Positions 2,480 to 62,975 are shown, numbered from the stretch's first letter. The stretch: DNA of 64,000 bases from Candidatus Krumholzibacteriota bacterium (GCA_963764625.1 CAVXTH010000004.1:1-64000); one strand, 5' to 3'. Made by a program: numbers and translations. Notes: generated by a model not told the origin, from the letters alone.

Positions 2480-2484
2480 GCGCC

Positions 2485-5322: not shown

Positions 5323-5466
5323 GTTTCATCCTCTCGCAGGGGGTGCCAGGATACCACGATTGCCAATATTCTCTTGATCGGAAAATCCGCCGACTAGAAA
5401 TCTCGACAGAATCTGGCTGAGCACTCGTTGCGGCCGGGCGACTCTTACCCATCGTGCTTACCATGA

Positions 5467-6480
<1,014 letters not shown>

Positions 6481-6592
6481 GCGCCCTAAGTCTCCACCCG
6501 AGTGCGCCTGGCCGGAGTGGCGCCCTCACGGATTGACCATCCCCCAGCCGGCCTCTACACTCATGGCACTCCCCAGGTCCCGGAGTCCACCC

Positions 6593-44279: not shown

Positions 44280-44525
44280 CCTGCTCGTTGCAGTTCTCCC
44301 AATTCCCCATGCTCGTGCATTCGGCTTGAAACTTCCGGATTTTTTCATGAGTCCTCGGACACGATGAGGAAGCATTGGAAACGTGAAGCCACCGGCAACC
44401 GATGGCATGCGTATTGCCTTCCCCTGGCCGAGGAAAAGCACGCAGCGGCGTCCTGAGGATTCCGCGTCGTGTCTCCACGGGAATCACCCGTACTCGACAC
44501 ACAACCCGTGCACTCTCAGGGTCTC

Positions 44526-47500
44526 ATGAGAATCAATCTGCGCACCCAGCTAATTGCCGTTGTGACCTTCCTCAGCGCGCTGCTCGTCGCGAACGTGGCC
44601 GTGGCCTTCGATCATCTGGAAATCACGGTCGTAAATCCACAGATCGTGCAGGGACGACCCGCCGTCACGGCGCAGGTCGGTTTCAGTGTCCGTGTTCGCG
44701 CTGCAAATGCCGATGGAAGCACCGATACCGCCGCGGACTTCATCAACGCAGAGTTCTACACCGACGACGTTCCCGCCAATCTTCCGCCCCGCTCCTACTT
44801 GCAGGGCGGTGAGCGTCAGTTCGACAACCTGGTGCTCCTCGCATCGGGCTCACCGATCCGTCTGCGGGTGCGTGACGCCGACGATTCATCGGTACCATTT
44901 GGTGAAATTCTCATCGATTGCTACGACTACGTGGAGTCATTCACGCTCGTAGTGCCTCCGGGCGACAAATTCGTCGACCAGGTCGTCAACGTGACCCTCC
45001 AGGCGCGAGACATCGGGGGCGGGTTGGTATTGAATTTCCGCGATGACATCGTTCTCGACGCAGCCATCGGAGATTTTGCGAGCGGAACCACGATCACTGT
45101 CCCCGGCACCGCTTTCAGCCTTGGTGAGGCAACCGTGCCCATCGTATTCTGGGGAACTGATCCGGTCACGCGAGAAAACACCCTGAGCGCGATAAACACC
45201 AGGGTATACCCTGGCCAAGGTTCTGCAGCCACCGGGAGCGCCATCGTCTCCCCCCTTCGTCCGGGACCCCTAGGCACTGTCGTCCTTTTGTTGCCCGGAG
45301 AATCTCTTACGCCTGGCGTGAGTCCGGGCAAGACCGGCACCCCTCTCCCTCAGATTTCCGGCAACTCCTTCAACGGGATCGATGTCTACGCCACCGACTC
45401 GCACTGGAACCCCGTCGAACCAACCGCCTACCCCCAACTGTCCTGGAGCAGCGATGATCCCAGCGCCGGTGTAATTCTTCCACCCGGTGGAGCGATGGCC
45501 AGCAACGCCGAACTGGACGAAACGGTCCGCCTCATCCAATCGGGCTTGCGGCGGGTAACGGTCACGGCAAGCGGCTCGCTCAACGCCAGCAGCGAAAGCA
45601 ACGTGGTGGTCAATCCCGAGGGATTGGACCACTTCGTCTTCGACTATACCGCGTGGGATACCCTCGACGTTCAGGTCACCACCATTCCATTCTCGCTTCG
45701 AGTTCGAGCGGAAGACGTCAACAACAATCCATTTCCCTTCAATGGACAAGTGACGATCCGCGCCAAGCTAGGCGCAACGGATGAATCCGAAGACTATGCG
45801 ATCGTCAATAATACGAATTTTGTGAACGGACAACTCGACGCCTTGGTCCAAGTTACCAAGCGCGCATTCAGCGCGCGCGTGATCGTCGACAGCAACGGTG
45901 GCGTCGTGGGACAGAGCGGGCACTTCCAGGTGAACTCAGGGCCGCTCAATCGTATTCTCCTTACCTTTCCTGGCGAGACTTGGGTACCGGGGCTCAACGA
46001 CGAGACTTTCAGCGGCAACACTGGAACCCCCAACAATGTCATCGCGGGCCAAGAGATATTTCCGGTCACAGTGCGACCGGTCGACCGCTACGCCAATATC
46101 GTCTCTGGACTGCGTAACGTCACGATCAGTTCACCTACCGGGTACTTTGAACTTCCGGATTATCCGAACAATCTGATCTCCCTCAATAACCCCGTGGATG
46201 TCCGCGTAATTCTGCGGACTGCGGGAAGGAACAACTCGCGGCCGACGCAAGCGGGGTGAACCCGAATCTGTCTGCCCGTGTCAATGTTTCTCCCGCCCCT
46301 TACAATCGCGTTGTCGTCGAGGCGCCCGGCGAGTCCCTCGACCCGGGTATCTTCGACAGCATCGAGGATGATGGAAAAATCGGGCAACCTTCCGTGCAAG
46401 ACGCAGGCGTGCCTTTCAACGTGCGCGTCTATGCGACAGATGTCTATTGGAACCCCATCACCGACTTCGACCCCGCGCTTCCGATCAGTGCCGACTTTAG
46501 CAGCAGCGATCTGGCTGCGGTTCTACCGTCCAACCCCCAGGCGCTCAACAATAACTCCCAGGTCTTCGCGGTAACGCTGATCACTCTGGCTGATCCGAAC
46601 CAGCAGACCATCCGCGTCGACGACAATGCAGCGACAATTCGGTTTCACCACGATCCCGGTAAAGGCGGGCACCATCGATCACTTCGACATCGGCATCAAC
46701 AACCGGACGAATCCCACTCCGGGTGAGTTCTGGAGCCGATTCCCGACCATCAGGCGGGTTCCTTCCTGCCCAACGTCACCATCGTGGCGCGGGATGTCTT
46801 CAACAACCACGTCGCGGACTACAGCGACAGCGTGACAATGTACGTCAGCCACGGTCCGAACGTCTTGCAGCCGGTGCGCGTGAGCATGGGCGACGGCTTC
46901 GGCAGCGGTGCCTACAAGGGCGTCTGGCGCGGACCGATCCAGATCACCAAGGCTGGCACCGGACGTGCGCCTCTTCGTACGCGAGGAGGTCTTCGCGAGT
47001 ACCGACAGCAGCAATACATTCACGGTCTTCCCCGGAGCCTACGAGGATCTGTCCTGCTGCTGCCGGGCGAGACCCCGACGCCGGGTATCGCGCCCGGAAA
47101 GGTCGGCACGCCGCTTCCGGTAGTGGCCGGCGATCCCATGGTGGCCACGGTGGTCGGCGACCGACCGCTTCTGGAATCCGGTGACCAGCTCGCCGACCGT
47201 GCACTTCGACAGCGACAACTACTTCCAGATGGTCTCGGCCAACGATCAGCCCCTGGATCCATCGGAACCGGGAGCTTCGACCTCTTCTTCAAGACGGCGA
47301 CCACCCACGCGGTTTCGGTCAACGACCTCATCTCGCCGGCGCAGAACGACACCTCACGGATTGGTCCAGGCAGGAACCTTCGACCGTCTCATGGTCCTGG
47401 CTCCGGGCGAAACCCCCAATCCCGGCGGACCGGATTCCGATGGAAAGGTGGGGGCGCCGGTTCCCCAGACCGCGAGCCTGGAGTTCGATCTGCACGTGCT

Positions 47501-50500
47501 GTCGGTCGATCAGTTCTGGAACCAGGTGGACAACAGCACCGAGCACATCTCCCTCGCCAGCGACGACAACTCGCTCTCGCCGACCAATCCCGTGAACAAC
47601 GGTCAGCCCCTGGTCAACGGCGAGATCGTGTTCCCGATCTTCCTGACCTCGCCGGGATTCGTCACTCTGGGCGTGGCCGGAATGGACAACACCGATCTGC
47701 TGGGCCAGTCGGTGACCATCCCCGTGGAGCAGGGCGCGGCCTATCAGATCACGGTGCCGCCCACCGCCAACGTCGGGCCGCCGTCGACCTTCTCCATGAC
47801 CATCGCGCTGGTGGACTCCAACGGGGTCCCGCTTCCCGCCGCGAACAACTACGTCACGCTGAAGGCACTCAAGAGCAACCTGGAGCCGGCCAGCTCGACC
47901 CTCTTCGTGACCGGGGCCCAGCTCCAAACGGATCGGTGACCCTCACGAACCAGGCCTACGACACCGTCGAAGACATCGTGATCCAGATCAGCGACGTGTC
48001 GGGGCGCCTCAGCTACTCGAACATCATCCAGATGCAGCCCAACGGGCTGGAGTACGTGGTCAACGTCGAGTCGGATCCTCCGCCGCGCGTGGGGCCGCCC
48101 CACCTTCGGCATGAGCGTGCGTCTGCAGGACAGCGAGACCAAGACCCTCGTGCGCGAGGATCGTCCCCTACGTCCAGGTCTTCGATGGTCTCGGGCAGAC
48201 GGGACGCGGCTCGCTGGGGGTCACCTCGCAGCGTCTCGACCACGGAAAGGTCAGCTTCCAGCAGAGCTACACCCGAGCCGAGAACATCTACATCACCGTC
48301 ACCGACAGCACCGGTCTGGCCGGCAGCAGCCCGATCTTCGCGCTGACTTCCGACGGATACAAGAAGCTCCAGATCGTCGCCCCCGGCGAAGTCGTCGAAG
48401 CCGGAGTCGACAGCTTCAGCACCACGGGCAAGAGCGGACCCCTGCGCCATCGCAGCGGCGAACTCTTCCCGCTGACGGTGCGCGCCGTGGATCAGTACTG
48501 GAATCTCGCCGACTCGACGAATTCCGGGGATCTGCGACTCGTCGCCAGCGACAACAGCTACGCGCTGCCGGGCAATCCCAACGTCAACCACGTGCCTTTC
48601 GTCAACGGCAAGCGCACCTTCAACAGTTTCCTCACCGACCCCGGCCAGGTCACGGTGACCGTGTACGACGAGGCAAATCTCGCCAGACCCGAGCAGGACG
48701 TCGTGATTCCGGTGGATCCGCCCTACCAGTACGAGATCACCGTACCGGCGACCGCGACCACGGGGTCCATCCCCGGGTTCCAGGTGGTGGTGAAGCTCGT
48801 CGATCCCTCGACGGGGAACGTCGTGCCCACCGCGCAGCATCGCTTATCTCACGCCGCTCTTCCGAGTCTGGCGCTGGCCAACGGAACCCTCGGAGACCGC
48901 CGCCCAGCTCATCGACGGAGTCGCGGTCCTCAACAACCAGAGCTACGACACGGTGGAGGACATCCTCATCCGGGTGAGCGATGCATTCGGTCGCGAGACC
49001 ATGTCGAGCCTGATCCACATGGACACCGGCGGCCTCTACTTCTCCGGTGCCGTACCCGACGCCGCGGTGGGGCCGCCCGGGACCTTCCCCCTGAACATCG
49101 AGCTGCTCGACAGCAACACCGGCCAGCGCGTGGTGACCCAGGATCGAGTCGTGGACATCCGCGTGCTCAGCGCGAGCACGGGACAGCCGGGTACCGGCGT
49201 GTTGGGAATCGTGCAGGGACAGTTGAACGCGGGTCTGCTCTCGGTGTCCGAGAGCTACACCCGAGCCGAGGACATCTTCCTCGCGATCAGCGACTCCTCC
49301 GGCGTCACCGGTCTGAGCAACACCTGTCGCATGCTGGCCGACGGTTTCAAACGGATGCAGATCGTGGCTCCCGGCGAGACGGTGATTCCCGGAAGCACTT
49401 CGGCCACCGGCAAGACCGGTTCGCCGGCGACCCAGCAGGCCGAGGCTCCGTTCACGGTCCGGGTCCGCGCAGTGGACCAGTATTTCAACCTCGTCGAGAC
49501 GATCGACGACGGCGAGCTGCACCTGACCTCTTCTGGAAGCGGGCTCGAACTCGCCGATCCCAATCTGGATGGATCGCCATTCATCAACGGAATGCGCGAC
49601 TTCGAGGTGGTCCTCGGCGACCCCGGCGTGATCCCGGTCTTCGTGACCGACGCGACGCGTCCGCAGATCAGCACCGGGCGGGTGGACATCCCCGTCAACG
49701 AGGCCGAGTACCGCATCATTCTGCCCGACCCGCCGGTGGTCACCGCGGGACCGCCCGCGACCTTCCCGGTGACCGTCCGCCTGGTCAATCCGATCACCGA
49801 CGAGCGGATCAATGCCGGCAACGACTTCACCATGCAGGCGTTACTCCGGACCGCAGCGCGGCCAGCAATATCCTCGGCATCACCGGGGGAACGCTGGTGG
49901 CCGGCGAAGCAGTCATCGGCGGTCAGAGCTACGCGACCAGCGAGCAGATCGTCATTCGAGTGAGGGACTCACGGGGCCGAGAGGCCTTCAGCGAACCGCT
50001 CACCGTACAGCCGGTCGGCGTGACCTGGGCATTCGACGTCCCCGACACCGTGGTGGCCGGCGCGCCGTGGACGATGGCGGTCCGCCGCGTGGACATCGTG
50101 ACCGGGCAGCTCGTCACCCTCGATGACCGGAGCTTCACTCTGCGTGCGTTCAGCGGCAACGCCGCGGCCCGATATGCTCTCACCCCGTCCGGCGCTCTGC
50201 GACACACCGGCAGCACCACCGGCGGCGAATCATCTTCACCTCCCAGTGCTACGACCGCGCCGAAGGGATCTACCTCGAACTCACCGATCTCTCCGGCGAG
50301 CGCGCGTTCAGCCCGGTCATCACCGTACTTCCCGCGGCTCCGGCCGAGGTGCAGGCTGACGGTGGAAGAAGTCCCGGGCCGCATCTTACCCGGCCGCTGC
50401 GCCAACGAACAGGGTACGCCAGGGCGCGGATCACCGACGGGGCGGGCAACCCACTGCCGGCGGTGGGAGTGGACTTTCGGATTCTCCAGGGCGATGCCTG

Positions 50501-51230
50501 GTTGGGCAGCGGCCAGGACGTCACCCTCCATGCGACCACCAGCGCCCTCGGTGAGGCGAGCGTGGATCTGAGCGCGCGGCCCTACGCGCAGAACGACGTG
50601 CGCCTCGTGGCCACGTGTATCCGACGAGGTCCTCGTGGACGTGGTGGGGCCGCCGCACACGAGGTCAGATTCGATCCGCCGGCCACGCCCTATCAGGGCG
50701 GTTGGTATCTGAGTCCGGACACGCGGATCACCTTGGTGGGGACCACCGAGGACGCAGCGGGGATCCAGGCCATCTTCACCGACGTCGATGTGGTGGATCC
50801 GCCGCAACCCCGGCCTCTACACCCGGCCCTTCACCTGCGCGTCGCGGCCACAACCCGGAGTTCACACGCTGCGCTTCTATTCCGAGGAAGTCTCGGGCGC
50901 CCTCGAGCCGGTCCAGTCGGTGCGACTGTACACCAGCGCGGCCTCGCGACCGAGAAGCAGGTCACCAATCGCCCCAATCCCTTCCGAGCCGGTCGAGGAG
51001 ACCATCATCCTGTTCCATCCGCAGTCACCGGAACCGCGGCACTCGTGATCTACGACATCTTCGGCGCCACGGTCTTCTCGACCGAGATGCCGGTGACCGC
51101 GGGGACCACGGCCCAGTTCTCCTGGAACGGCCGCAACGGCGAGGGACACGTGGTGGCCAACGGTGGCTACATCTGTCGCATCGTCGGCTCTGGCTATGAC
51201 CTTCGCCGCAAGATCGCGGTCGTGAAATAG
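44526..51230 (+). CDS. Giant (~2,200 aa) secreted Ig-like repeat protein with FlgD/T9SS-like CTD; multiple frameshifts
   Basis: Signal peptide ending AVA. Seven 'PGE...PG...GKxG.P...F...V.A.D.(Y/F)WN'-like repeats spread across successive frames. C-terminal 'NRPNPF...IYDIFG...WNGRNGEG..VANGGY...RRKIAVVK*'. Confidence 0.75.
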
Positions 51231-51244
51231 GAAGGGGAGGTACG

Positions 51245-52549
51245 ATGATGCACGAACAACGACTCAATCCCCGCGCCGGCATAGCGGTCGACTTGCTCTT
51301 CGCCGCGCTGATCGTCGGACTGGCAGTCGGGCCGGTCGTCGCGGCTGAAGACGCCGGCGTACCCGGAGCGTTCCTGCGCTACGGAACGGGCGCCCGGGTT
51401 TGGCCATGGGAACGCGATGACCGCGATCGCCGACGAGCAGCGTCCTCCTATGGAATCCCGCGGGCTTCGCTCGGCTGCGGACGATGGAGTTCACCGCGAT
51501 GGGCGCCACCCTTCTCGAGGACACCCAGTACACATTTTTCGCCCTCGGCTTTCCCACCGAAAATTACGGGAGTTTCGCTCTCAACGGGGCCTACCTCAGC
51601 AGCGGGAATTTCGAGAGGTCCACCCTGTTCGAGGACCTGCCCGAGACTTTCAAACAGGGTTCGAGTTTCCTCGGCCTGGGCTACGCCCGTACGCAGGGAC
51701 GCTGGACGTGGGGAGTCAATCTCAAAACGATCTCACAAGATCTCGCCGGAAACCAGGGCACCGGCTTCGGCGTCGATTTGGGACTGTATTTAAGGCCTCA
51801 CAGCAGCCTGAGCCTGGGCTTCAGTCTGCAGAACGCCATCGCTCCCACTGTGACTCTCGACCAGGAGAGCGAGCGCGACCCTCGCACATTGCGCGGCGGA
51901 ATGGCCCTTCATCTTTTCCACAACCGCATGCTCGTGAGCAGTGATCTGGTCAAGACCGAGGAGATGCAGGCCAAATTGCGGAGCGGATTGGAATTTGGCC
52001 CGCCCGTCAGTTTGCCTTGCGTAGCGGTTACGACGCGGTGCGCGACCAGCTCGGCTTCGGAGCCGCCTTCCGCTGGGAGAACTGGCAGCTCGACTACCAA
52101 TACCTAGATGACGATCTCGGGGGAACCCAGGTGGTCAGCGTGACGTTCCGTTTTGGCGTGCCTTACGGCGTGAAACTGCATTGGGATCGCACGCTATTCA
52201 GTCCTTCGGGTGAGGATCGCTCCGTGACCTTTGATGTCCAAACCGCGGTAACGGGCAAAGTCGAATCATGGAACCTCGTTATCCTCGACCACGAAGGCAA
52301 TGCCGTTCGGACTCTCTCGGGAACGGATCGCCCCCGGACAACATCGAGTGGGGCGGGAAGACGACGACGGCCGTCTGGTCGCGGACGGTCATTACGAAGT
52401 TCGCATGACCATTCTCGACGAAATGCGCGAGGAGTGGGACTACGAGACCTCGGTCGAGGCATTGGGTTTCTCATCGGACACGCTCTCCGATCAAGGTCGA
52501 GATCAGCGGCGGTGGCAAAGAAGAGAAACACAGGGAGAAGAATCGATGA
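51245..52549 (+). CDS. PorV/PorQ (FadL-fold) outer-membrane barrel with C-terminal FlgD-Ig domain; frameshifted
   Basis: Joined frames give 'GAFLRYGTGAR..AMGNA.TAIAD......NPAG' and 'GFGVDLG'. Then 'FSP...SW.L.I.D.EG..VRT....I.W.G.DDDG.LVADG.Y'. RBS ggagg. Confidence 0.7.
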
Positions 52550-55500
52550 GGACCCCAACATGCTCAGGCAGCGAGTACGCCGTGCACGATCACACGGCAG
52601 GCGGCATCTACGACGTGCGCGGCCCCGGTCGCCATGGGACTCATCTTCGCCTCCCCTGCGGACCTGCCGCTTATCGGAGTTACGGGACTTGCCCACGCTC
52701 AGAGCTTGGAGAAGAAGATCCCATCCGAGATGGCCTATGGCGAGGAGCCGGCAATGCTTTTGCCGAAGGAACCGACGAATCGGCCGCCATGCAACAATAC
52801 CGGCTCTTCGTGAAGACCTATGGTGGCAGCGAGCACGCGGCAAGCGCCCAGTACATGCTGGCTGAGTGCTACTTCGCCAGTGGTGACTACGAGACGGCGC
52901 TACAAGAGTATGAGCGCGTCCACAAGTTCAAGGGAGATGACAAGTACATCCAGGCCTCGGTGCTATTGCGAAGCGCGGAGTGCCAGTTCAATCTTCACAA
53001 ATTCGCTGCAGCCGTCAACACCTATGACCAACTCATCAGCAAGTACGAAGACAGCTTTCTGCTTGCCGAAGGCCTGTATGAGGCTGGCCGCGCCTACATT
53101 GCCAATGGCAACTGGCTCAAACTCGAGCTTAGCTACAAGCAGCTCCTCGAAGCGCGTCCTGGATATGCAAAACTACCCCAAGTTAAGTTTGCGCTCGGCC
53201 TCTTTGTGAACCGGGACCAGAACTACGAACAGGCCCTCGCGTACTTCAAGGAAGTCCCGAATGATCGCGGTCTGTTCTACATGGGCAAGACCCTCGAGGA
53301 CATGGGCCAAGCACTCCTCGCCATCCAGCGCTACCGGAAGGTTCGGCTCAAGTATCCCGACAGCCCTCTGCGCCATGACTTCGTGGCTTTTACAGCGTCG
53401 GGAAGCGTTTTATCACAGTAAGCAGAACGAACTCGCTGTTCGCAGCTATCGCTCTTTCATCGACGAATATTCCTATCTTTATTTTTAAAAAAACGCGCGC
53501 TACAAGCTTGCCTGCATCACCTACCGCGAAGGCGACTTCGATGAGAGCATTCGGCAACTCAAGGAAGTATGTGCGCTTTTCCCAGGGCAGATGGTGTGCG
53601 CGTACGCTCGCTACCTCATCGGTGACGCCTACATGCGCCTCGACGACACCTCCGATGCGATATTCTCGTACACGGACGTCGTACGCAATTTCGGAGAGAT
53701 CGAAGTTGCTTCCGCCGCACTACACAAAATCGTATACGGCTACGCTCACGAGAACAACTTTGGCCAGACGATTCAAATGGCCGAAGAGTCTTCCGCGCTG
53801 CTTCCCGGGTGACCCTCTCGCCCCGCGGGTGCACGTTCTGAAGGGCTACGCCCACCTGATGCTCGATGAGCAAGACCAGGCAGTAAGAGACTTCCAAAAC
53901 GTCCTGGATAAGAATGTCAATACCGACGTGGCCGAGCGGGCTCTATTCCTGTCTACCGACGCTTACTCTAAGAGTGGCCAGTACGACCGGCTAATCACGA
54001 ATTACAATTACATCGCCAAGCGACTGTTGCCAACGCCCAGCCACTGGCGCGCCCGTACCTATTACTACCTCGGTGAAGCCTATTATGCTCAGGGCTTATA
54101 CAAAGCTTCCAATGCAATGTATCGCCTCGTGCTGACCGGGTATCCCCGAAGCAACGTAGCTGCCGCGTCTCTACAGGGCTTGGTCGCAAGCTACAGCCAG
54201 ATGGGTGAATACGACGTGGCGCTGGATGAGCAGCGAAAGTTCCTGCTCGCTTTGGCGAATTCTGATAGCGATGAAGGTACTAACTCACTGGCCGTGGGTT
54301 CGATCTACTTCAACCAGCATAAGTATGAAGATGCCCTTCGACAATACAAACAGGACTTCTTGTCCGCCCATCCCGACGATCCAGAGGCGGCGGGCGCGCT
54401 GCTCAACGCAGGTGACAGTTACTATCGACTGCAATACTACGACCAGGCGATCAAGAGCTGGGGAGATCTGCTTACTGGCTTCCCGGACTCCAAGGAGGCG
54501 GCGGAAGGCCTCTACCGTATTGCTGATACGCAATTCGGACTCGGCAAATTCGAGGCAGCCCACAAATCGTACAACCGCTTGGCCACTCAATACCCCAACG
54601 GCAAGTTCGCGGCGGACGCCGCCTTTGGCCTGGCGAATTGCGCCTATAACCTAGGTCAGGACGAGGCGGCAATAGCGGCCTTTGGCGCTTTTGTGAAGTC
54701 CTATCCGAAGGATCCGCGAGTTGAAGATGCCCAGCTGGGAATTCAATCCTGCTACTACCGTAGCGGCAAAGACATGGAGGAGTACCTCTCCAAATTCCCC
54801 GACAGCGCTCTCGCGGCCGATATTTTCGGAAGAAGGGGCAAGCAGCCTTTGGAGCAGGCGACTACGCCACTGCCGCTCGCGCCTTCGAGAAAGTGACCCT
54901 CGACTATCCCGAGTCCGAAAGCGGTCCCGCTGCACTCTTATTACTTGGCCGAGAGCTACTACCGAATGGATCAGCTGGAGCCCGCTTTGGCGGGATTCCG
55001 AAATTTCGTGACTACTCATCCCGAGCACGACTTGGCTGAGCTGGCACAATTCCGTCTGGGCACCGTGTTGTTCAAACTCGAGAAGTTTGAGGGCCGCAGC
55101 GCGCGAATATGAAACCATGCGCGACCGATTCCCCAATGGGGAGTACGCGGCACTCGGCCTATTCAACACTGCGATCTGTTACCAGCAGACCGAGGATTGG
55201 ACTGCCGCGATCGCAAGCTACGAAGAATTCCTGAAGCTCTATCCGACCCATGAGAAGGCGGCGGGGCTGTGGCTCGAATTGCGTCGATCGACCAAGACGA
55301 GCTGGAGCTCTACGGGCAAGCGATTGAAGCATACGGAAAAGCTCTCGCCAATAAGGACGGCAACCCAGTCGAAATTCGTTATCGCCAAGGCGAATGCCAC
55401 GAGAAAGCGAAGGACATCGACTCCGCCATCAACAGCTATCGCGAAGCTGGCAAGGGATCCGGCGACGATCCCTTCGTCATCGCGGCTTTGGCGAAGGTCG

Positions 55501-55646
55501 GAGAATTGCTCGAAGACCGCGGAGACTTTCGCGGAGCGGTCAAGGCATACCAAGACATTCTCGCTAAAGCAACAAAGCCGGAATGGACAGCAATGGCGCA
55601 ATCCCGCGTCGACGCTCTCCAAGAGAAGGCAATGGCCGGTCGCTGA
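52546..55646 (+). CDS. Large TPR protein (BamD/CpoB-like repeats, ~1,000 aa); frameshifted
   Basis: Many 'A.Y.LG..Y...G.Y..A...(Y/F)......YP.S' repeats across ORFs 52300.., 53591.., 53508.., 55087.. and 55269..; ATGA overlap with the upstream gene. Confidence 0.75.
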
Positions 55647-55670
55647 CCGGCGCGTGGGAGGAAAATTAGC

Positions 55671-56387
55671 ATGATTGGTGATCTCTCGGTCCTCGACCTT
55701 TTTCGCACTTCGATCACGATGGTCGTCTTGCTTGCATGCTCGATCGTGACCGTCGGCTTCGCGGTAGAACGCTGGCTTTTCTTCGGGCGCAGCTCGACTA
55801 ACGCGAAATCGTTCATGAAGAACATCCACGGAAAGCTCAAGTCCGGAAACGTGTCTGGCGCACGAGCCTTCTGCGAACAGCAAAAGAGCGCCGTAGCTCG
55901 CGTGATCGGGCAAGGTCTTGCTCACGCGCATCTACGCCGCAACGACCTACAGCAGCGGATGAACACCGCGATCGAGATCGAGCAAGTCGAAATGGAGCGC
56001 AACCTCAATGTGTTGGGGACAATGAGTAACATCGCTCCTCTGCTCGGGCTCTTCGGTACCGTAGTTGGTATCATCAGAGCTTTCGCCGCGATTGCGCGTT
56101 CAGGCTCAGGTGGAAGCCAGGTCGTCGCGATGGGTGTGGCTGAAGCACTCATGACCACTGCCGCCGGTATCATCGTGGCAGTCATTGCCACGGTCTTCTT
56201 CAACATATTCATCCGGCGGATTCGTACGCGGACTGTCGATCTCGAAGATGCACGCGAAGAACTCCTCGTATTGTTGGCGGAGGCTGCCATCCAACAACAG
56301 CGCGCCACCAATCCCGCTCCGGCGCTTAGGAATACAGTCCGACCCGCAGTCGAACAGGAACCCGCAACCTCCGGCATTCTGAGCTAG
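55671..56387 (+). CDS. exbB: MotA/TolQ/ExbB proton channel protein
   Basis: 'LGTMSNIAPLLGLFGTVVGII' and 'GVAEALMTTAAG' TM motifs. Confidence 0.93.
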   Translation: MIGDLSVLDLFRTSITMVVLLACSIVTVGFAVERWLFFGRSSTNAKSFMKNIHGKLKSGNVSGARAFCEQQKSAVARVIGQGLAHAHLRRNDLQQRMNTAIEIEQVEMERNLNVLGTMSNIAPLLGLFGTVVGIIRAFAAIARSGSGGSQVVAMGVAEALMTTAAGIIVAVIATVFFNIFIRRIRTRTVDLEDAREELLVLLAEAAIQQQRATNPAPALRNTVRPAVEQEPATSGILS

Positions 56388-56421
56388 ATCGAGCCAGAAG
56401 CGCCAAGTAAGGGAAAGCACC

Positions 56422-56868
56422 ATGACATCGCGGCACAGCATTGCACACGGTGGCATCAGCGAGGTCAACATCACGCCATTGGCCGATGTTACGACAACTC
56501 TGATCGTTGTGTTTCTCGTTGCCTTACCGACTCTCCTTTGGAGCGGCATTCAAGTGCAGAGCAAGGCAGCAACACAGGGTTCGCAACATATCGTTCAGCC
56601 GACCAAGAATGAGAGAGTCGGATTGCTGACGGTCGCGGTAAACCCAGGAGGCATCACCCTCAATCAGAGACCCATCGCGCTGTCGGATCTCGAGGATGAG
56701 CTTCGAAGCCGCCTCGCGTCGCGGCAGAACCGCACGGTGGTCATCGTACCGAACGATCAGGTTTACCTGGGCGATGTGGTCAGCGTGCTCGACATTGCCA
56801 AGGCGAGTGGAGCTACTGATCTGGCGTTACTCAATTTCAAGCAAACTTCCGGGGGTCGCTCTAAATGA
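56422..56868 (+). CDS. exbD: ExbD/TolR family protein (canonical TM Asp)
   Basis: 'SEVNITPLADV...LIVVF' with D22; 'G.VVSVLDIAKASG'. Confidence 0.9.
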   Translation: MTSRHSIAHGGISEVNITPLADVTTTLIVVFLVALPTLLWSGIQVQSKAATQGSQHIVQPTKNERVGLLTVAVNPGGITLNQRPIALSDLEDELRSRLASRQNRTVVIVPNDQVYLGDVVSVLDIAKASGATDLALLNFKQTSGGRSK

Positions 56869-57308
56869 AGATCAAACCTGATCTGGCGACAAAGACGGAC
56901 GTTGTTCCCATCATTAACGTCGCGCTGGTAATCGTACTGACGCTGATGATCATTTCCCCTTCTCTCAACCAGGTCACAACGGACGTTGATCTGCCCGAAG
57001 CGCGTGCAACACAGACCGATGAAGAGAACAAGGTTGAGATCACTTGCACCCTCGACGGTCAGATCTACTTGGCCGATATGGCGGTGAGTCCAGAAGAGAT
57101 CGCTTCGATATTGGGAGAGCTCCTCGAGGAAAACCCGGGTGCGATCGCAGTGGTGCGTGCCGACAAGAATCTCGTGTACGGAAACGTGGAGCGCATCATC
57201 GCAGAGGTCGAGAAAGCCAAACCAGCGGAAATCTCACTGGCCACCGCGCCCCCCAGGAAAGCGGTAGAGAGGAAGTTGATTCACGACCATGATGCGTTAC
57301 GCCCATAG
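56865..57308 (+). CDS. exbD: Second ExbD/TolR family protein (TM Asp replaced by Asn)
   Basis: 'DVVPIINVALVIVLTLMI', 'VDLPEA' and 'VVRADK...YG'. Confidence 0.85.
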   Translation: MKIKPDLATKTDVVPIINVALVIVLTLMIISPSLNQVTTDVDLPEARATQTDEENKVEITCTLDGQIYLADMAVSPEEIASILGELLEENPGAIAVVRADKNLVYGNVERIIAEVEKAKPAEISLATAPPRKAVERKLIHDHDALRP

Positions 57309-58566
57309 CCGGGCTCGTCCCACTCAGGGGGGCATGGTCACCAGCGTGATGGTGCATTCCCTGCTATTGCTCCTGCTGGGTTTGGCATTACGCCATGGCG
57401 CGTCGCTTCCCATTCCCATGGATAAGCTGACCAAGATCACCTACATCGAGGCGCATCAGGGTGAAAATGTAGATGAAATGATACGCCTCAAGACGATGGC
57501 CAAGCGCCATCCCAAGTTAGCCGACGGCGCAGGCATATCGACGCGCTCTGCCGTCAAGAGCAAGTCAGTGGCAGAACCGGGTCCTCTGCCACAATTGCGA
57601 ACGCCCGAGCGCAAGAGTGTTGCCGAGATCACGACGCCCCTGCCCACTCCGACTCGCATGCAGCAGCGCGAATTGGCCACCGCTCCGCAGCTCGATGCCA
57701 AGTCGAAGGACTTGGCGCAGGTTGCAGTCTGCCTTCCTGACGCCCTGCGCAGACCCCAGCTTGAGGATGCGTCCTCCGCTACGCCCAGGCTGACCGCGAA
57801 GTCGGCCCCGCAGAGTCTTGAAGGTGCGACTCACTCCCTCGAGAGTCGGCGGACCGAATTTGATCTCGCAGGTGGCGACGTCGACCCCGCACCTCGCTCC
57901 TCGACTGGTTCTGCCGAAGGTTTAGCTGAAACAGGAGTGGCCGGACCGGGCAAGGCCACCCTACGACCATCCAAGGGTGGCACCGGATATCGAGCGCCTC
58001 GGCCGGGTCGGCCCGCACACCGCCAGGGAGAAGCGATCGCTGATGTAGGCGCTGACGACATCGTCGGAAATGGCGAAGGCGGTGGCACGGCAGACAAGGT
58101 GGACGCCGCACCCGTTCGACTACGGCAGTGGAAGCGGTGGCGGCTTGCGTGGGCGCGCGAGCGGAGATATCGCCCCCGATCGCAGCGCGATCAAACCAAC
58201 CCAAAAAGCCAAGGAAGACGCTCAGAAGCAACTTGCCGACACCAAGGCCACCGAACTCACTGCAAATGGCATGAACATGAGCATCACCGGAGAATTTCAG
58301 GTCGAAAGGTTTTGCACATGGTCCCGCCGAAGTACAGCAGCTTGGCCAAGAAGAAGGGTTGGGAGGGCGTGGTAGCGGTGCACTTCACCGTGTTTCCCGA
58401 TGGACGGGTCAAGGACAATCTCTACTTCGAACAGACTTCCGCCCATCGCGATCTCAATCAGGCAGCGATGACCGCGATTCGCCAGTTCAAGTTCGCCCCC
58501 CTCTCCGGCGATGACTCGCAGGTCGAGCAGTGGGGATTGATTACTTTCGTCTTCCGCTTGCACTAG
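57289..58566 (+). CDS. tonB: TonB family energy transducer (probable internal compensating frameshifts)
   Basis: TM 'SVMVHSLLL' (SxxxH); long Pro/Ala-rich linker; TonB_C 'PKYS.LA...GWEGVV.V.F.V..DG.V........S....L..AA..A..Q.KF.P'. Confidence 0.85.
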   Translation: MMRYAHSRARPTQGGMVTSVMVHSLLLLLLGLALRHGASLPIPMDKLTKITYIEAHQGENVDEMIRLKTMAKRHPKLADGAGISTRSAVKSKSVAEPGPLPQLRTPERKSVAEITTPLPTPTRMQQRELATAPQLDAKSKDLAQVAVCLPDALRRPQLEDASSATPRLTAKSAPQSLEGATHSLESRRTEFDLAGGDVDPAPRSSTGSAEGLAETGVAGPGKATLRPSKGGTGYRAPRPGRPAHRQGEAIADVGADDIVGNGEGGGTADKVDAAPVRLRQWKRWRLAWARERRYRPRSQRDQTNPKSQGRRSEATCRHQGHRTHCKWHEHEHHRRISGRKVLHMVPPKYSSLAKKKGWEGVVAVHFTVFPDGRVKDNLYFEQTSAHRDLNQAAMTAIRQFKFAPLSGDDSQVEQWGLITFVFRLH

Positions 58567-58631
58567 TGAGAAGCAGGAGCCAGACCCGGTACGCAGAGAT
58601 GCAAAAGGAATGAACAATGTTCGGGTTCAAC

Positions 58632-59634
58632 ATGAAGAAGAGAGTGACTCCGATACGCGCCCTGCTCGTTTGGGTTTCGATGCTCTCGGAGCCCTCGCAC
58701 TCACGCCCGCGGCTTCGGCACAGCCAGGTACCACCGCACGGCCAGACAGTTCGGCGACGCTAGACAGTCCGGCGCAGAAAGTCTCCGACGAGAATGAATC
58801 CGGGAACACCTTCACCGAGCCCGGTGAGAATGGCGCTGTCCTGGACGACGTGGTCGTCGAAGCAGAGAACGAAGTGCGGCAAGGCGTCGAGAAGACCTCC
58901 TTCGAATTCGAACTCAGTGCTGCTGTGATCGATTCCTTTCTGAGTGAGGTCGACAAGGAAGCTCTCGAGGTCAGTCCAGTGAGCGGTCTTCAGCCGTACT
59001 TGAACAACTTGCAACCCATGGCCAGCGATCAAACTCCCCATCTCTGGCTACCCGAGATACCGGGCACCCCGGTGCGACCTCTACCCCGACCCCGAACCAG
59101 GGCGACAGATGAGCCATTGGCAGCTGACGATCACGGACTTCCGAGGCTCTCCCTATCGAACTTTCGAAGGCAAGGGATCCCCCCCGACAAACTCCGCTGG
59201 GACGGACGCAGCGGTGAGGGCAAATGATCCACACCGGCTATCCTTACAGCTACGTATTCACCACGACCGACAAGGGAACTAACGCGTACAACCATGCCGG
59301 CGTGAGTTCCGGTTGCCTGCCCTGGACTATCATGCTGGCGACGACCGTATTCTCGAACTCAGTGGTAGCGAACTCTTCGAGCGCTCGGATGTGACACTGC
59401 TGGAGACCGGAGAGAAATGCGCTAGTACAAGCTACCGACATCATGCGCCAACACCCCTATTCGCCATTCGAGGTGGTCTGTGTTGCCGAAGACGCTGAAC
59501 TAGCTCGCAAGCGGGCCGAGGTCGTGGCGAGATTTTTGGCAGATCGTATGGTTTTGCCGCGCGAGCAGGTGGAAGTCTCCTTCAACAGCAACCAGACCTA
59601 CGCTCGGAGATGGACGGTCATGTGCGGATCCTAA
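58632..59634 (+). CDS. Exported protein with FlgD-Ig-like and OmpA-like C-terminal domains; frameshifted
   Basis: MKKR + hydrophobic N-terminus. Joined frames give 'WQLTITDFRG...RTFEG..PP..L.WDGR..G', then 'LF......L...LARKRAEVVARFL'. Confidence 0.55.
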
Positions 59635-59664
59635 TCCAGCACGCGGAGTGAGTGGAGTGACGGC

Positions 59665-59788
59665 TGTTCCTACCATGGGGCGCTGCTCGTAACAAGCCGA
59701 GGGCCTGAAGCTGATGACGGATTGCAATGTTCTCCAAAAATCGGTCTCGGGATCTAAAGAGAGCGACTACGTTCCTTGGGCAGGGACA
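59665..59788 (-). mobile_element. Miniature IS relic G
   Basis: Ends TGTTCCTACC... and ...GGCAGGGACA; minus strand reads LFRSRDRFLENIAIRHQLQAL. Confidence 0.7.
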
Positions 59789-59985: not shown

Positions 59986-60155
59986 GCGATGGCTCGATCA
60001 AGGGATGTTCGCCCCGCGGTTCTCGTGCGTATCAGAAAGAAAGAGGCAGGATGGCGGCATCCCTGCCGCGATCGTAAGCGCGGGCCGACGGCCGAACGCG
60101 AGGGTCGCGGCCGTGAGGGTGCAGCGTTCTCAAAAGCCCAATGGAGTGATAAACC

Positions 60156-62975
60156 ATGAAATACTACGAACGCTCGAAGCTCGTGCGCAGCGTCCTCATC
60201 GTGCTGGGATGCACGGCATTGCTGGCATCGGGCCGTCGTCGGCCCATGCCGACTCCGGGAGATCTCGACCCCTCGTTCGGGGGCTTCAGCTACGACGGCG
60301 TGGCGACCCAGTACGGCTATCCGATGGATGGCGGGGAACGCGGCATGGCGATCCAGCCGGACGGCAAGATCGTCATGGCTGGATACACCTCGCTGGGAAT
60401 CCTCGTCATGCGCTATCTTCCAGACGGCACTCCCGATCCTACGTTCGGCGGTGGGGAGGGCGCGGTGGCCCTCCTACATCCGAGCGTGGTGACCAGGGCG
60501 ACGGACGTAGCGATCCAGGCCGATGGGAGGATCGTCGTGGCCGGATGGGCCGACACGGGACCGGCCGACTATATGCTGGCCCGTCTCACCCCGAGCGGCT
60601 ATCTCGATCCCTCGTTCGGCTCGGGCGGCTGGGTCCTCACCGACTTCTCGGACGACACCGATCAGGCGTACAGCGTCGTCATCCAGAGCGACGGCAAGAT
60701 CATCGCCGCCGGCCGCTCGCTCATCGGCAATGACTACGATTTCTCCGCCGCCCGTTACAACCCGAACGGAACTCTGGACATGAGTTTCGGCGGTGACGGG
60801 CTCGTCACGGTCGGGTTCGGCAAGCTCGGACCCGACAACAACGAAGCCTGCTACGACATCGCTCTCGACAGCAGCGGTCGGCTAGTGATGGTCGGCGGCG
60901 GCACCGATGTCTGGACGACGGGCACGTTCGATATCGCCCGCCTGACGACGAGCGGCTCGTTGGATGTCACGTTCAACACGATCGGCAGGAAGCACTGGGA
61001 CGTCGGACCGGACAACACGCAGGCGTCGGCCGTCGCCATCGCGCCGGACGGCAAGATCGTCGTCGCAGGGTCGCAGGTTTACTTCAATTCGTCGCAGAGC
61101 GGCGAAGCCTATGCCGCTCGCTTCCTTCCGAACGGTGACTTCGACAACTCGTTCGACGACGACGGCAAGCTCAAGGTCTCGGACAACTACTTCATCAGGG
61201 ACGTCGTCGTGCAACCTGACGGCAGAATCTTACTGCTGGGCGACGCCGCGTTCTCGGCGAGTCAGTGCTCTGCGCTGTTCATGCGCCTCGCGCTGGACGG
61301 ATCGCGCGATCCGACGTTCAGTGACAACGGCACGTACTACTCCGCAGAGAGCGGCTACTGCAAGGGCTATGACCTCGCCCTTTTGCCCGACGGCCGCCTG
61401 CTTGCCTACGGCGCGAAGGACCAGAACCATCTGCTCGTTCAGCTCTGGCCCGACGGCACGCTCGATGTGGCCGGCAAGCAGGCGATCGGCTTTGATACGC
61501 CCGGATTCGGAGCCGGCACGTACTCGATCGGCTACGGCATGGCCATTCAACCGGACGAGAAGATCATCGTCGCGGGAACCGTCTATGGCCCTGCGGGGGA
61601 CGCCGATTTCGGTCTGGCGCGCGTCTTTTCAACCGGGAGGATTGACGACACCTTCGGCACCTACGGACGCGCCACGTTTGCATTCGACGAGGACGACCTC
61701 GGTACCTGCGTCGCCTTGCAAAGCGACGGCAAGATCATCATGGCCGGCGACACCCAAAACGGTTCGGATCGCGACTTCATGGTCGTGCGCTTCAACCCCG
61801 ACGGCAGCGTCGACGGATCGTTCGGATTTCTCGGCTTCTCTGTACTCGACTTCCTGGGCGGAGACGACTACGGCCGCGCGATTGCCATCGCGCCGGACGG
61901 GAAGATCGTCGTCGTCGGAACGGTTTTCAACGGCGCCCGCAACGTCTTTGGGGTGGCTCGCTTCAACAGCAACGGCACGCCCGACACCTCCTTCGACATC
62001 GATGGCAAGCAACTGGTCGAATTCGCAGTCGGACCGACCCATTGGGCGTCCAGCGTCGCCGTCCTTCCCGACAACCGGATCCTCGTCGGCGGCAGCGTCG
62101 GCGGCGACTTCGCTCTGGCACGCTTAAACGTGGACGGCAGCCTCGATACAACCTTCGGCAGCGCGTTCGGCGGATCTGGTAGGCGCACCTATGATTTCGG
62201 CGGCAATGACTACTTGAACGCACTCAAGCTGAGTTCGGGCGGCGCGATCTATGCGGCCGGCAGCAGTGAGATCGCTGGTCACACCGTCTTCGCGATGCTG
62301 CAGTTGCCCTCGCACGGCGGGCCGCCGACCTGCTTCCCCACTCCCTGCCCTTGGCCGAGTGGACAGGCGACCGTCGACTGGGGCGCGAGCGTGAATGGCG
62401 CAGCCTATGCGATCGACCTGAGTGACGATGGCCAGGTGTTGGTGGGCGGAATCGCGGGCGGAAAGATGGCGTGGGCCCAGGTTCCCGCATCGTCGACGCC
62501 GATGCCGATCCTGGGCATGGCCGATTTCCCGGGCGCCAGTGACACCGCCACCGGCATCAGCTTCACCAGCTTGGGCAAACTCGTCGCGTCTGGCTACTAC
62601 GATCAGAACGGAGTCAAAGCCCTGGCGCTGGCGAGCTTCGAGACGACCTTTAACGCGGTTAGCGTCCCTGACGATGGCACGACTCGGGCCTCGACGCAGG
62701 TGCGCTTCCTCTCCGCCTACCCCAATCCCGCGTCGGGTCGAACCCTGTTCGACTTCGAGCTCCCGAGCTCCGGCACCACGCGCGTCTCGGTCTACGATCT
62801 GGCCGGTCGACGCGTTCGGGTGCTTGCCAACGAGCCTCTCGCCGCCGGGAGACACGAGCTGGCATGGGACACGAACGACAGCCACGGGCGACCGGTGGCG
62901 GCGGGGATCTACCTGGCGCGCGTGGAGTTCGGGACCTTCCACGCGCAGAAGAAGATCATCGTATTCAGTCGCTGA
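60156..62975 (+). CDS. Delta-60 repeat (DUF5122) beta-propeller protein with FlgD-Ig/T9SS-like CTD
   Basis: Many 'QPDGKIVVAG' and 'AR...DG.LD.SFG' repeats; C-terminal 'AYPNP...VYDLAGRRVR...W......G.PVAAGIY'. Confidence 0.9.
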   Translation: MKYYERSKLVRSVLIVLGCTALLASGRRRPMPTPGDLDPSFGGFSYDGVATQYGYPMDGGERGMAIQPDGKIVMAGYTSLGILVMRYLPDGTPDPTFGGGEGAVALLHPSVVTRATDVAIQADGRIVVAGWADTGPADYMLARLTPSGYLDPSFGSGGWVLTDFSDDTDQAYSVVIQSDGKIIAAGRSLIGNDYDFSAARYNPNGTLDMSFGGDGLVTVGFGKLGPDNNEACYDIALDSSGRLVMVGGGTDVWTTGTFDIARLTTSGSLDVTFNTIGRKHWDVGPDNTQASAVAIAPDGKIVVAGSQVYFNSSQSGEAYAARFLPNGDFDNSFDDDGKLKVSDNYFIRDVVVQPDGRILLLGDAAFSASQCSALFMRLALDGSRDPTFSDNGTYYSAESGYCKGYDLALLPDGRLLAYGAKDQNHLLVQLWPDGTLDVAGKQAIGFDTPGFGAGTYSIGYGMAIQPDEKIIVAGTVYGPAGDADFGLARVFSTGRIDDTFGTYGRATFAFDEDDLGTCVALQSDGKIIMAGDTQNGSDRDFMVVRFNPDGSVDGSFGFLGFSVLDFLGGDDYGRAIAIAPDGKIVVVGTVFNGARNVFGVARFNSNGTPDTSFDIDGKQLVEFAVGPTHWASSVAVLPDNRILVGGSVGGDFALARLNVDGSLDTTFGSAFGGSGRRTYDFGGNDYLNALKLSSGGAIYAAGSSEIAGHTVFAMLQLPSHGGPPTCFPTPCPWPSGQATVDWGASVNGAAYAIDLSDDGQVLVGGIAGGKMAWAQVPASSTPMPILGMADFPGASDTATGISFTSLGKLVASGYYDQNGVKALALASFETTFNAVSVPDDGTTRASTQVRFLSAYPNPASGRTLFDFELPSSGTTRVSVYDLAGRRVRVLANEPLAAGRHELAWDTNDSHGRPVAAGIYLARVEFGTFHAQKKIIVFSR

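Follow-up and report, generated by a model that had tools for sequence, protein, structure and literature searches.

To our knowledge, energy is delivered to the outer membrane (OM) of Gram-negative bacteria in only a few ways: by the Ton system, by Tol-Pal, by the motors of the flagellum and of type IX secretion systems (T9SS), and by the Agl-Glt machinery. We also know of no ExbB-ExbD-ExbD-TonB motor that shares an operon with a T9SS component. Here we describe an operon of eight genes in a stretch of 64,000 nucleotides from a Candidatus Krumholzibacteriota bacterium (GCA_963764625.1, CAVXTH010000004.1:1-64000; the whole stretch is called the window below). Located on the + strand between 44526 and 59648, the genes encode, in this order, a giant Ig-repeat protein with a C-terminal sorting domain (CTD), a PorV/PorQ-family barrel, a TPR protein, ExbB, two ExbD subunits (ExbD1 and ExbD2), a transducer with a TonB_C domain, and a protein with an Ig and an OmpA-like domain, referred to below as the last protein. 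The operon appears to be an undescribed variant of the Ton/Tol-class force transducers, tied to T9SS-style OM parts and found in several uncultured phyla. The conserved block links a Ton/Tol-type motor with type IX-style OM parts in phyla that have no cultured model, and what is new in it is a conserved TonB-box-like motif on the last protein and a conserved sigma-54-type promoter element before the operon. A full-text literature search, judged from listings and the openings of abstracts, with supplements excluded and most subscription journals outside its range, returned no description of an operon in which an ExbB-ExbD-ExbD-TonB set is joined with a giant CTD protein and a barrel of the PorV family, and the accessible part of PMC11495043 likewise holds nothing on this operon.

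With Tol-Pal the operon shares an ExbB/TolQ channel with ExbD/TolR subunits driven by the proton-motive force, a TonB_C/TolA-like transducer with an S-x3-H anchor, a TPR protein built of CpoB units, and a periplasmic protein of OmpA fold; a motif in a disordered N-terminal strand is the likely handle of the transducer, as in TolB. Unlike Tol-Pal, it has no TolB, its OmpA-like protein is not a lipoprotein and itself bears both the handle and an Ig domain, and it contains two different ExbD subunits and a TPR protein of four times the length, besides a giant CTD protein and a barrel of the PorV family. With the Ton system it has the ExbB, ExbD and TonB_C domains in common, but there is no plug-and-barrel receptor in the operon or its flanks. 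The encoding of a CTD surface protein beside its own PorV/PorQ-family barrel recalls the T9SS pairs PorU-PorV, PorZ-PorQ and SprB-SprF, whereas the barrel of the operon is an equivalog of neither PorV nor PorQ and is fused to a periplasmic Ig domain, a full ExbB-ExbD-ExbD-TonB motor lies in the same operon, and the phyla concerned are outside the Bacteroidota. The OmpA-like, Ig-containing periplasmic protein, together with the TPR units, also recalls PorE of the PorP-PorE anchor of Bacteroidota. One account suggests that a TonB-like transducer may serve PorE, which it views as a possible TonB-linked fusion of CpoB, TolB and Pal (PMC12204202).

Two further described systems resemble the inner-membrane half. 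The Agl-Glt core complex of Myxococcus and its relatives consists of AglR/Q/S, GltD, GltE, GltG and GltC, and the accessible part of its description reports that non-gliding bacteria have it as a conserved block whose function is unknown (Luciano et al., 2011, PMC3169522). As far as that part goes, the likeness lies in one TolQ-like subunit together with two of the TolR type, a transducer of the TonB_C type and, with more than 1,000 residues, a TPR protein that carries a signal peptide; the differences are that the Glt family models are not matched, that the transducer of the operon has no FHA domain, and that its OM partners are a PorV-family barrel, a CTD giant and an Ig-OmpA protein rather than GltA/B/H/K-CglB. 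Clusters of a gene for a TPR protein, a tolQ-like gene, two tolR-like genes and a gene for a vWA-headed transducer, of unknown function, have also been reported (Williams-Jones et al., 2025, PMC12204202). Judging from the accessible part of this source, they share with the operon the TPR protein, one TolQ-like subunit, a heterologous TolR-like pair and an anchored transducer with an S-H-L-S-type helix, while the head of the transducer in the operon is a true TonB_C domain instead of vWA, and the barrel, the giant and the Ig-OmpA protein are additional.

The operon and its proteins

A first-pass annotation, made from the sequence alone, had reported eight co-oriented and tightly packed genes, several of them overlapping. 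ORF (open reading frame) listing and translation of the window confirmed this, with the operon ending at 59648 and not at 59634, since the stop codon of the last gene occupies 59646-59648. ExbD1 and ExbD2 overlap by 4 nt, ExbD2 and TonB by 20 nt, and the remaining gaps measure 14-43 nt. Coding on the + strand from about 44.5 to 59.65 kb is nevertheless split over many frames, and five of the eight genes are broken by frameshifts: the giant, barrel, TPR and last genes, and probably the middle of the TonB gene. The window is contig C4 of genome G000 (3.57 Mb, 9 contigs, 62% G+C), and the host is an uncultured salt-marsh bacterium. Four other public runs, all of salt-marsh metagenomes, gave short-read contigs (95-99% alike) that differ from 44400-59700 (15.3 kb) at 56 indel places. 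Among these, an extra C (after 52321), an extra G (after 52354) and the loss of one base each at 53388, at 53392 and at 53790 fall on the frame-switch sites of the barrel and TPR genes (52321, 52354, 53388/53392 and 53790), and several recur in 3-4 runs; within the TPR gene these contigs show indels at 53310-55310. Because the indels of the other runs coincide with the frame switches and the orthologues are intact, the frameshifts are assembly errors, not decay, and the operon is whole in nature. A pseudogenised relic was considered and ruled out on the same two grounds. The 56 small indels over 15.3 kb therefore also indicate a high indel error rate, and gene calls in this genome need frameshift-tolerant reading.

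Family and structure searches were consequently run on intact orthologues from genome G007, which are 49-82% identical to the window genes. The loci of G007 and of a second genome, G006, have the same gene order and read without any break, and tblastn with the G007 proteins places every operon gene on the window and shows the points where the frame switches. Among 28 stop-to-stop pieces of the window itself, Pfam gave FlgD_ig at the C-terminus of the giant, MotA_ExbB (PF01618, 104.3 bits), ExbD (PF02472, 59.0 and 66.9 bits) and TonB_C (PF03544, 50.1 bits), all over the cut-offs, and many TPR families on three pieces. Owing to the frameshifts, the window barrel piece by itself matched nothing over a Pfam cut-off. 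As the first-pass annotation had stated, no gene for a TonB-dependent receptor, TolB, Pal or GldK/L/M/N (PorK/L/M/N) was found inside the operon with Pfam and NCBIfam.

The last gene (58610..59648, + strand, 2-3 frameshifts) encodes a periplasmic Ig-OmpA protein of about 325 residues (325 in G007, 336 in G006), consisting of a signal peptide, a disordered N-terminal region, an Ig domain and an OmpA-like C-terminal domain. The signal peptide is of type I and there is no lipobox Cys. The G007 protein has no sequence match in Pfam, NCBIfam or PDB, while the database search returned 196 relatives, with an identity of 54% or more for each of the best 120. In an AlphaFold2 model built from 52 sequences, the predicted local distance difference test score (pLDDT) exceeds 90 for residues 125-325 and is below 50, i.e. 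disordered, for residues 29-116. With the C-terminal half, the top 50 Foldseek matches are OmpA-like domains (probability 1.00, TMt 0.5-0.7), and they include FopA, PA0833, MotS/MotB, Pal and the C-terminal domain of PorE (6top). The OmpA likeness assigned in the first-pass annotation is supported by the modelled fold, whereas the Pfam OmpA match of the window (59395-59631) stays at 18.1 bits under a cut-off of 27.2, with none in G007. The Arg of this domain (R280) is nearly invariant. The middle domain is an Ig sandwich homologous to the Ig domain of the barrel (hhalign probability 97.3%, E 2.4e-11); the CTD of the giant is only weakly like the Ig domains compared with it, at profile-profile probabilities of 51% and 21%.

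The disordered N-terminal region of the last protein contains a conserved motif, in the window within the residues ...VLDDVVVEAENEV.... L55, V59, V60, E61, A62, N64 and V66 are invariant or nearly so among 52 aligned sequences, although the pLDDT of the region is below 50, and in an alignment of 14 sequences from four phyla, every one conforms to the pattern L-x-[DE]-hydrophobic-V-[VI]-x-[GA]. The motif resembles the segments that precede the plug in the genome's own TonB-dependent receptors (...TDEVVVRAE..., ...DEFVVEGQ...). From this likeness, and from the known grip of TonB and TolA on a disordered strand, we infer that the motif is a TonB box; with such a motif in its disordered N-terminus, the last protein is the likely target of the operon's TonB. 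Complex prediction for the TonB_C domain with the mature last protein (score 0.00, mark 0.32) does not bear on binding either way.

Directly upstream of the TPR gene lies the gene for the barrel (51245..52549, end approximate, + strand, about 5 frameshifts; 447 residues in G007, 464 in G006), a 14-strand-type OM barrel with a C-terminal FlgD-Ig domain and a conserved tail. The PorV/PorQ likeness claimed for it in the first-pass annotation was borne out: the G007 protein scored 114.5 bits with the PorV/PorQ family model NF033709 (cut-off 90, positions 6-321 of 326), the operon barrels of G005, G006 and G008 scored 116-120 bits, and the frameshifted window barrel reached 72.2 bits on one fragment. 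With the equivalog models it stays well below the cut-offs (PorV 37.4 vs 250 and PorQ 71.4 vs 220, models NF033710 and NF033711; PorV2 53.5 vs 325). The model (AlphaFold2, pLDDT 79.0) has PorV as its top Foldseek match in PDB (8gl6_F, E 4.5e-10, TMt 0.62), followed by 6h3i_F and then by FadL; the PDB sequence search found PorV at E 0.27 only. The FlgD_ig domain of the G007 barrel scores 34.2 bits (cut-off 27), and as the barrel is even-stranded, this domain would be periplasmic. The mature barrel begins directly with a conserved barrel motif and has no N-terminal extension bearing a TonB box.

The first gene (44526..51230, + strand, about 8 frameshifts) encodes a giant secreted Ig-repeat protein of about 2,230 residues if read through, with a signal peptide and a C-terminal domain of FlgD_ig or T9SS type-A-like character. 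It matches the 2,297-residue G007 protein (2,288 residues in G006) at 45-82% identity across changing frames in tblastn, and the orthologue alignment has an N-terminal signal peptide and a conserved C-terminus. Internal repeats of about 335 residues appear in tblastn cross-matches alone, self-BLAST giving no off-diagonal rows. The orthologue has weak Big_1 and MG4 matches, and a PDB sequence search with the giant gave nothing usable. The CTD was assessed with the T9SS type-A sorting domain models TIGR04183 / PF18962 and with FlgD_ig (PF13860). At 28.0 bits against a cut-off of 27 for FlgD_ig, the window copy is marginally over, and the Elusimicrobiota orthologues are over the cut-off of 23 for TIGR04183 with 27.3-31.5 bits. 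By these cut-offs the T9SS type-A/FlgD-like CTD that the first-pass annotation gave to a protein of about 2,200 residues is marginal here, the G007 copy remaining under both.

Between the OM parts and the motor comes a periplasmic TPR protein of about 1,040 residues (52495..55646, start approximate, + strand, at least 5 frameshifts; 1,047 residues in G007, 1,002 in G006) with about 11 YbgF/CpoB-like units; its orthologues have a signal peptide and no lipobox, and the G007 protein scores 345.5 bits with TIGR02795 (tol_pal_ybgF) over 11 stretches. The motor genes follow on the same strand. ExbB (55671..56387, 238 residues, intact; 238 in G007, 230 in G006) is a proton channel subunit of the ExbB/TolQ type. 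In NCBIfam its G007 orthologue scores best with TolQ (106.6, cut-off 221), then with ExbB (76.3, cut-off 206), and in the PDB sequence search it is equidistant from the solved structures of TolQ (64.8 bits) and ExbB (63.7 bits). The other Tol equivalogs are also missed by the G007 proteins, TolR with 45.0 and 56.1 against 127.3 and TolA with 27.4 against 59.45. ExbD1 (56422..56868, 148 residues; 155 in G007, 143 in G006) and ExbD2 (56865..57308, 147 residues; 143 in G007, 136 in G006) are both of the ExbD/TolR type. The transmembrane Asp, which binds the proton in ExbD/TolR proteins, is present in ExbD1 of 13 out of 13 orthologues. At this position ExbD2 has Asn in 12 of the 13 orthologues of type 1, the window among them, whereas Asp is retained by both subunits in FCPU426, in Firestonebacteria and in most of the Elusimicrobiota copies. 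ExbB and the heterodimer-type pair ExbD1/ExbD2 are parts of an inner-membrane motor of the 5:2 type. In the TonB-like transducer (57289..58566, 425 residues; 428 in G007, 399 in G006), a linker some 300 residues long connects an N-terminal anchor with an S-x3-H motif to the TonB_C domain at the C-terminus. In the window its middle part aligns poorly to the orthologues, which makes compensating frameshifts likely there.

Distribution and genome context

How far is this arrangement conserved? A search at the DNA level matched 8 of 21 related genomes, the window's own included; it led to the intact loci and missed more distant relatives. A scan with the barrel alignment, using one genome per species, left 80 loci, which were annotated with profiles built from the orthologues. 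All eight loci of the Krumholzibacteriota type that were long enough contain the eight genes in order; six further Krumholzibacteriota loci, cut by contig ends, have the expected genes as far as they reach, and one locus is of a paralogue type (below). The other 65 loci, from Elusimicrobia, Poribacteria and others, are PorV-family barrels, some of them behind a giant CTD protein, and have no ExbB, ExbD or TonB_C within the flanks. The wider spread across phyla was revealed only by the search with the last protein. Its profile matched 101 of the 151 genomes sampled in the phylum (80 of the 117 of high quality, and 52 of 69 genera), and many of them have, on the same strand and at a distance of about 6-7 kb, a second match of the profile, to the barrel Ig. 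Outside the phylum it matched two of five genomes tried, FCPU426 and Firestonebacteria, where seven genes are found (barrel-Ig, TPR, ExbB, ExbD, ExbD, TonB_C and last). In the Elusimicrobia phylum 30 of 121 genomes match the last protein at E <= 1e-8, and four of six fetched Elusimicrobiota loci have all eight genes, including a giant homologous to that of the window. Look-alikes of the last protein in the ESM Atlas form clusters that are commonest in Elusimicrobiota and candidate division WOR-3, which we regard as a lead only.

Apart from two Elusimicrobiota loci discussed below, the barrel gene is directly 5' of the TPR gene in every locus examined, in four phyla. The flanks, by contrast, vary between loci, and none of 56 flanking ORFs in 12 loci has a Plug or TonB-dependent receptor domain. 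The block of genes is thus a conserved unit, its order is kept in several phyla, as had been suggested for checking, and its motor travels with the barrel and the giant rather than with TonB-dependent receptors. Each of the three outcomes that the first-pass annotation had named as refuting its idea was looked for, and none was obtained.

Some observations concern individual loci. The three genomes of the same genus (G001, G003, G004) give no match to the last-gene profile (0 of 3) and only one faint match at the DNA level, although the window genome has two copies of the operon; either the genus assignment is loose, or there was recent loss or gain. The second copy (G000:C9:306500-317800, L016:6531-17808) is divergent, at 26-46% identity, and its order is Ig-repeat/FlgD_ig protein, barrel with FlgD_ig, 1,055-residue TPR protein, ExbB, ExbD, TonB_C and Ig-OmpA. 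This paralogue type, which scores 100-190 bits with our profile, seems to be commoner in the phylum than the type of the window. In the FCPU426 locus (genome G153, contig C82, L113:98-919) a CheR-type methyltransferase gene and a gene for a 461-residue protein of no family lie directly downstream on the same strand, and the Firestonebacteria locus (L115) has ORFs of similar size at the corresponding place.

The genome contains seven genes of the MotA/ExbB family. A canonical Tol-Pal cluster lies at G000:C6:616-621 kb, with TolQ...TolB (304 bits, full length), an OmpA-type Pal and a CpoB-like protein of 335 residues. Further ExbB-family genes neighbour a TonB-dependent receptor, form part of a PstS-TPR-ExbB-ExbD-ExbD-TonB cluster or lie within a giant-TPR cluster, and another is part of the divergent second operon copy on contig C9; the six Plug matches of the genome lie outside the operon. 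The possibility that the operon is a plain, divergent housekeeping Tol-Pal was rejected on account of the TolQ...TolB-Pal-CpoB cluster.

T9SS genes are likewise found outside the operon. SprA_N is over the cut-off in five of five genomes (G000, G005-G008), and PorU in four of five, being fragmented in G000 (best 277.9 bits), where it adjoins a PorV. The PorV family is matched 14 times in G000, 7 times over the cut-off, and each of the five genomes has at least 40 CTD-type matches. GldL (TIGR03513) and GldM (TIGR03517, PF12081) had no match in these five genomes, which are 93-99% complete, and GldK (TIGR03525) had none over the cut-off, both results standing without a positive control because the control genomes were T9SS-free; GldN was not searched. 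To the first-pass question whether genomes with this gene order lack sprA, porL and porM, SprA gives a negative answer, while for GldL and GldM no match was obtained, with the same reservation about a control. SprA_N occurs in 19 of 21 relatives, including six of the seven without a match to the last gene of the operon, and because it persists in these, the sequence data point to a T9SS in this phylum that does not in general depend on the operon.

Two other clusters of G000 deserve mention. At G000:C9:1046000-1066000 (L017), a PorV-family barrel (the genome's best NF033709 match, 186.6 bits) is located about 2 kb 5' of the genes for an N-extended ExbB, for ExbD and for a TonB_C protein, with a CarboxypepD_reg-type TonB-dependent receptor upstream and a TolC-like gene downstream, and the same neighbourhood occurs in contig C53 of G007. 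At G000:C9:271000-287000 (L021, minus strand), genes for a 1,635-residue TPR protein, a 335-residue TPR protein, ExbB, two ExbD and a 346-residue protein of no family stand in a row, a Glt-core-like or 'TonB-less' motor cluster.

Proposed mechanism and rival explanations

We infer a mechanism from what the analysis showed: the parts list and the folds, the homology of the two Ig domains, the conservation of the motif and of the gene block, and the presence of Tol-Pal and T9SS genes apart from the operon. We consider the chances about even that the operon encodes a proton-driven, envelope-spanning force transducer of the Ton/Tol class which serves one OM complex and acts on the anchor of a giant surface protein. 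The giant would leave the cell by the genome's general T9SS, the SprA of which is encoded elsewhere, and would then be held on its own PorV-like barrel, as in the PorU-PorV, PorZ-PorQ and SprB-SprF pairs of Bacteroidota. The Ig-OmpA protein may dock beneath the barrel, Ig to Ig, and so tie the barrel to the peptidoglycan. The head of TonB would grip the TonB-box-like strand in the disordered N-terminus of the Ig-OmpA protein and pull, with ExbB-ExbD1-ExbD2 energising the pull and the TPR protein acting as a periplasmic scaffold. In the way that TolA acts on TolB and Pal, such a pull could free the anchor or set it anew, and this could allow the cell to move, tension, expose or shed the surface protein with its barrel on demand. 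For the cell the gain might be that an adhesin is moved, put under tension, unmasked or shed, or that the OM tether is remodelled locally. If there is a TonB box on the Ig-OmpA handle, this provides a testable link between force transduction and the anchoring of a giant surface protein. More tentatively, and with the balance of our judgement against it, we put forward a further class of TonB/TolA-type machines beside Ton, Tol-Pal and Agl-Glt, spread over four deep-branching uncultured phyla, in which the motor would pull a TonB-box-bearing Ig-OmpA 'latch' under a PorV-type barrel and so move, tension, unmask or release a giant adhesin delivered by the T9SS; in lineages where no GldLM was found, such Ton-like sets might also energise the T9SS. 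The question bears on T9SS-like cargo handling outside the Bacteroidota, where the usual GldKLM genes were not found here.

Several findings weigh against the proposed transducer. The assignment of a TonB box rests on a short motif, and other conserved strands could be the target of TonB, for example the tail of the barrel, ...RTRSPIRVEISG. The peptidoglycan-binding residues of the OmpA-like domain (PF00691) are an Asp/Arg pair; the Asp position is not conserved in the last protein, and wall binding is tentative for that reason. In G007, the closest intact orthologue, the CTD of the giant scores 22.3 bits with FlgD_ig (cut-off 27) and 18.2 with TIGR04183 (cut-off 23), and the protein upstream of the FCPU426 and Firestonebacteria operons, with Ig domains and 1,546-1,871 residues, has no recognisable CTD. 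No match to the last protein was obtained in 50 of the 151 genomes of the phylum, among them all three of the same genus. Finally, two of the six Elusimicrobiota loci hold only the genes from TPR to last, the profiles detecting no barrel or giant, and the motor half may therefore work with other partners.

The first-pass annotation had favoured a compact export or surface-display machine. The view that such an export machine takes over from the T9SS core is not supported, as the genome has SprA_N, PorU and PorV of its own and SprA_N is present in six of the seven relatives without the last gene. A version in which the ExbB-ExbD-TonB-TPR set is a dedicated export motor that takes the place of GldL/GldM-GldK/GldN while the PorV-like barrel serves as shuttle agrees with the failure to find GldL, GldM or a GldK over the cut-off in five genomes of 93-99% completeness, each of which does have at least 40 CTD matches along with SprA_N, PorU and barrels of the PorV family. 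The layout of the operon suggests co-transcription of cargo gene, barrel and motor, and another PorV-family barrel is found 2 kb from a second ExbB-ExbD-TonB set. The operon has no translocon, however, the export system of the phylum appears independent of it (SprA_N in 19 of 21 relatives), the absence of GldKLM lacks a positive control, and the FCPU426 and Firestonebacteria versions come without a recognisable CTD cargo, so that we regard such a motor as unlikely. We give the same low rating to a motility machine which, by analogy with Agl-Glt, would move or unmask adhesins through the barrel as platform. The correspondence with the Agl-Glt core extends to one TolQ-like and two TolR-like subunits, a TonB_C transducer and a TPR protein of more than 1,000 residues, as the accessible part of PMC3169522 describes it; the OM platform bears a giant Ig-repeat surface protein, a CheR methyltransferase gene is directly downstream in FCPU426, and the loss of the Asp from ExbD2 in 12 of 13 orthologues would make the stator pair asymmetric. 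Against this, the NCBIfam Glt models score far under their cut-offs (GltE 45.7 vs 225, GltC 32.2 vs 450, AgmX/PglI tail 23.1 vs 40), Pfam finds no FHA domain in the transducer, and the block has no cytoplasmic track or MreB-linked parts. 'Loosely like Agl-Glt', as the first reading had it, is fair as an analogy and does not extend to family membership.

Two further explanations dispense with the pulling of an anchor. In one, the giant would capture a substrate and the TonB set would open the barrel for its uptake. The barrel has a FadL-family fold, the ExbB-ExbD-TonB set is complete with no TonB-dependent receptor nearby, and surface capture proteins are frequent next to transport barrels in the FCB group. 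But FadL-type channels are not known to need an energy input, the mature barrel has no N-terminal TonB-box extension while a TonB-box-like motif is on the Ig-OmpA protein instead, and in a block whose flanks are not conserved there is no binding protein, ABC transporter or catabolic gene; we think uptake very improbable. In the other, to which we assign the lowest probability of all, the operon would be a second, specialised Tol-Pal-like system for envelope integrity, with the giant and the barrel as mere neighbours. For ExbB and both ExbD, TolQ and TolR are indeed the best-scoring models, CpoB units make up the TPR protein, the last protein has a Pal-like OmpA fold, and in two of the six Elusimicrobiota loci the profiles recognise the half from TPR to last but neither a barrel nor a giant. 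Yet the TolQ, TolR and TolA scores are all far under the cut-offs, the operon has no TolB and its last protein no lipobox, a canonical Tol-Pal cluster is present elsewhere in the genome, the Ig domain of the barrel is a specific homologue of that of the last protein, and the barrel gene lies directly 5' of the TPR gene in every other locus examined in four phyla. On the whole, what the first-pass annotation had observed was confirmed, and its interpretation was supported in part.

Promoter element and neighbouring genes

A sigma-54-type -24/-12 promoter-like element, TGGCAT-N5-TTGC, is located on the + strand at 44403..44417, about 110 nt before the ATG of the giant gene (44526), with one mismatch to the consensus. 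Occurrences of this consensus in the whole window are at chance level (51 observed vs 57.6 expected), and the site carries weight only because it is conserved across loci: of 14 orthologous loci, 13 have the same element 5' of their giant gene, and it is absent from locus L034 and from the paralogous operon. The genome has rpoN (452.6 bits, cut-off 277), while no activator gene was seen among the nearby ORFs scanned. Expression of the operon is thus probably sigma-54 dependent, as judged from sequence conservation. An Rfam scan of the window returned no family.

Directly 3' of the operon, at 60153-62972, the window encodes a secreted protein of 939 residues with ten DUF5122 beta-propeller repeats and a FlgD_ig / Por_Secre_tail C-terminus, a further cargo of the T9SS type. 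Near the other end of the window, three clustered Ser/Thr protein kinase genes (173-9244) are fused to TPR, to an FGE-sulfatase domain and to PD40 propeller repeats, respectively, and a kinase-PD40 gene of similar kind follows the paralogous operon (L016:17715-20000).

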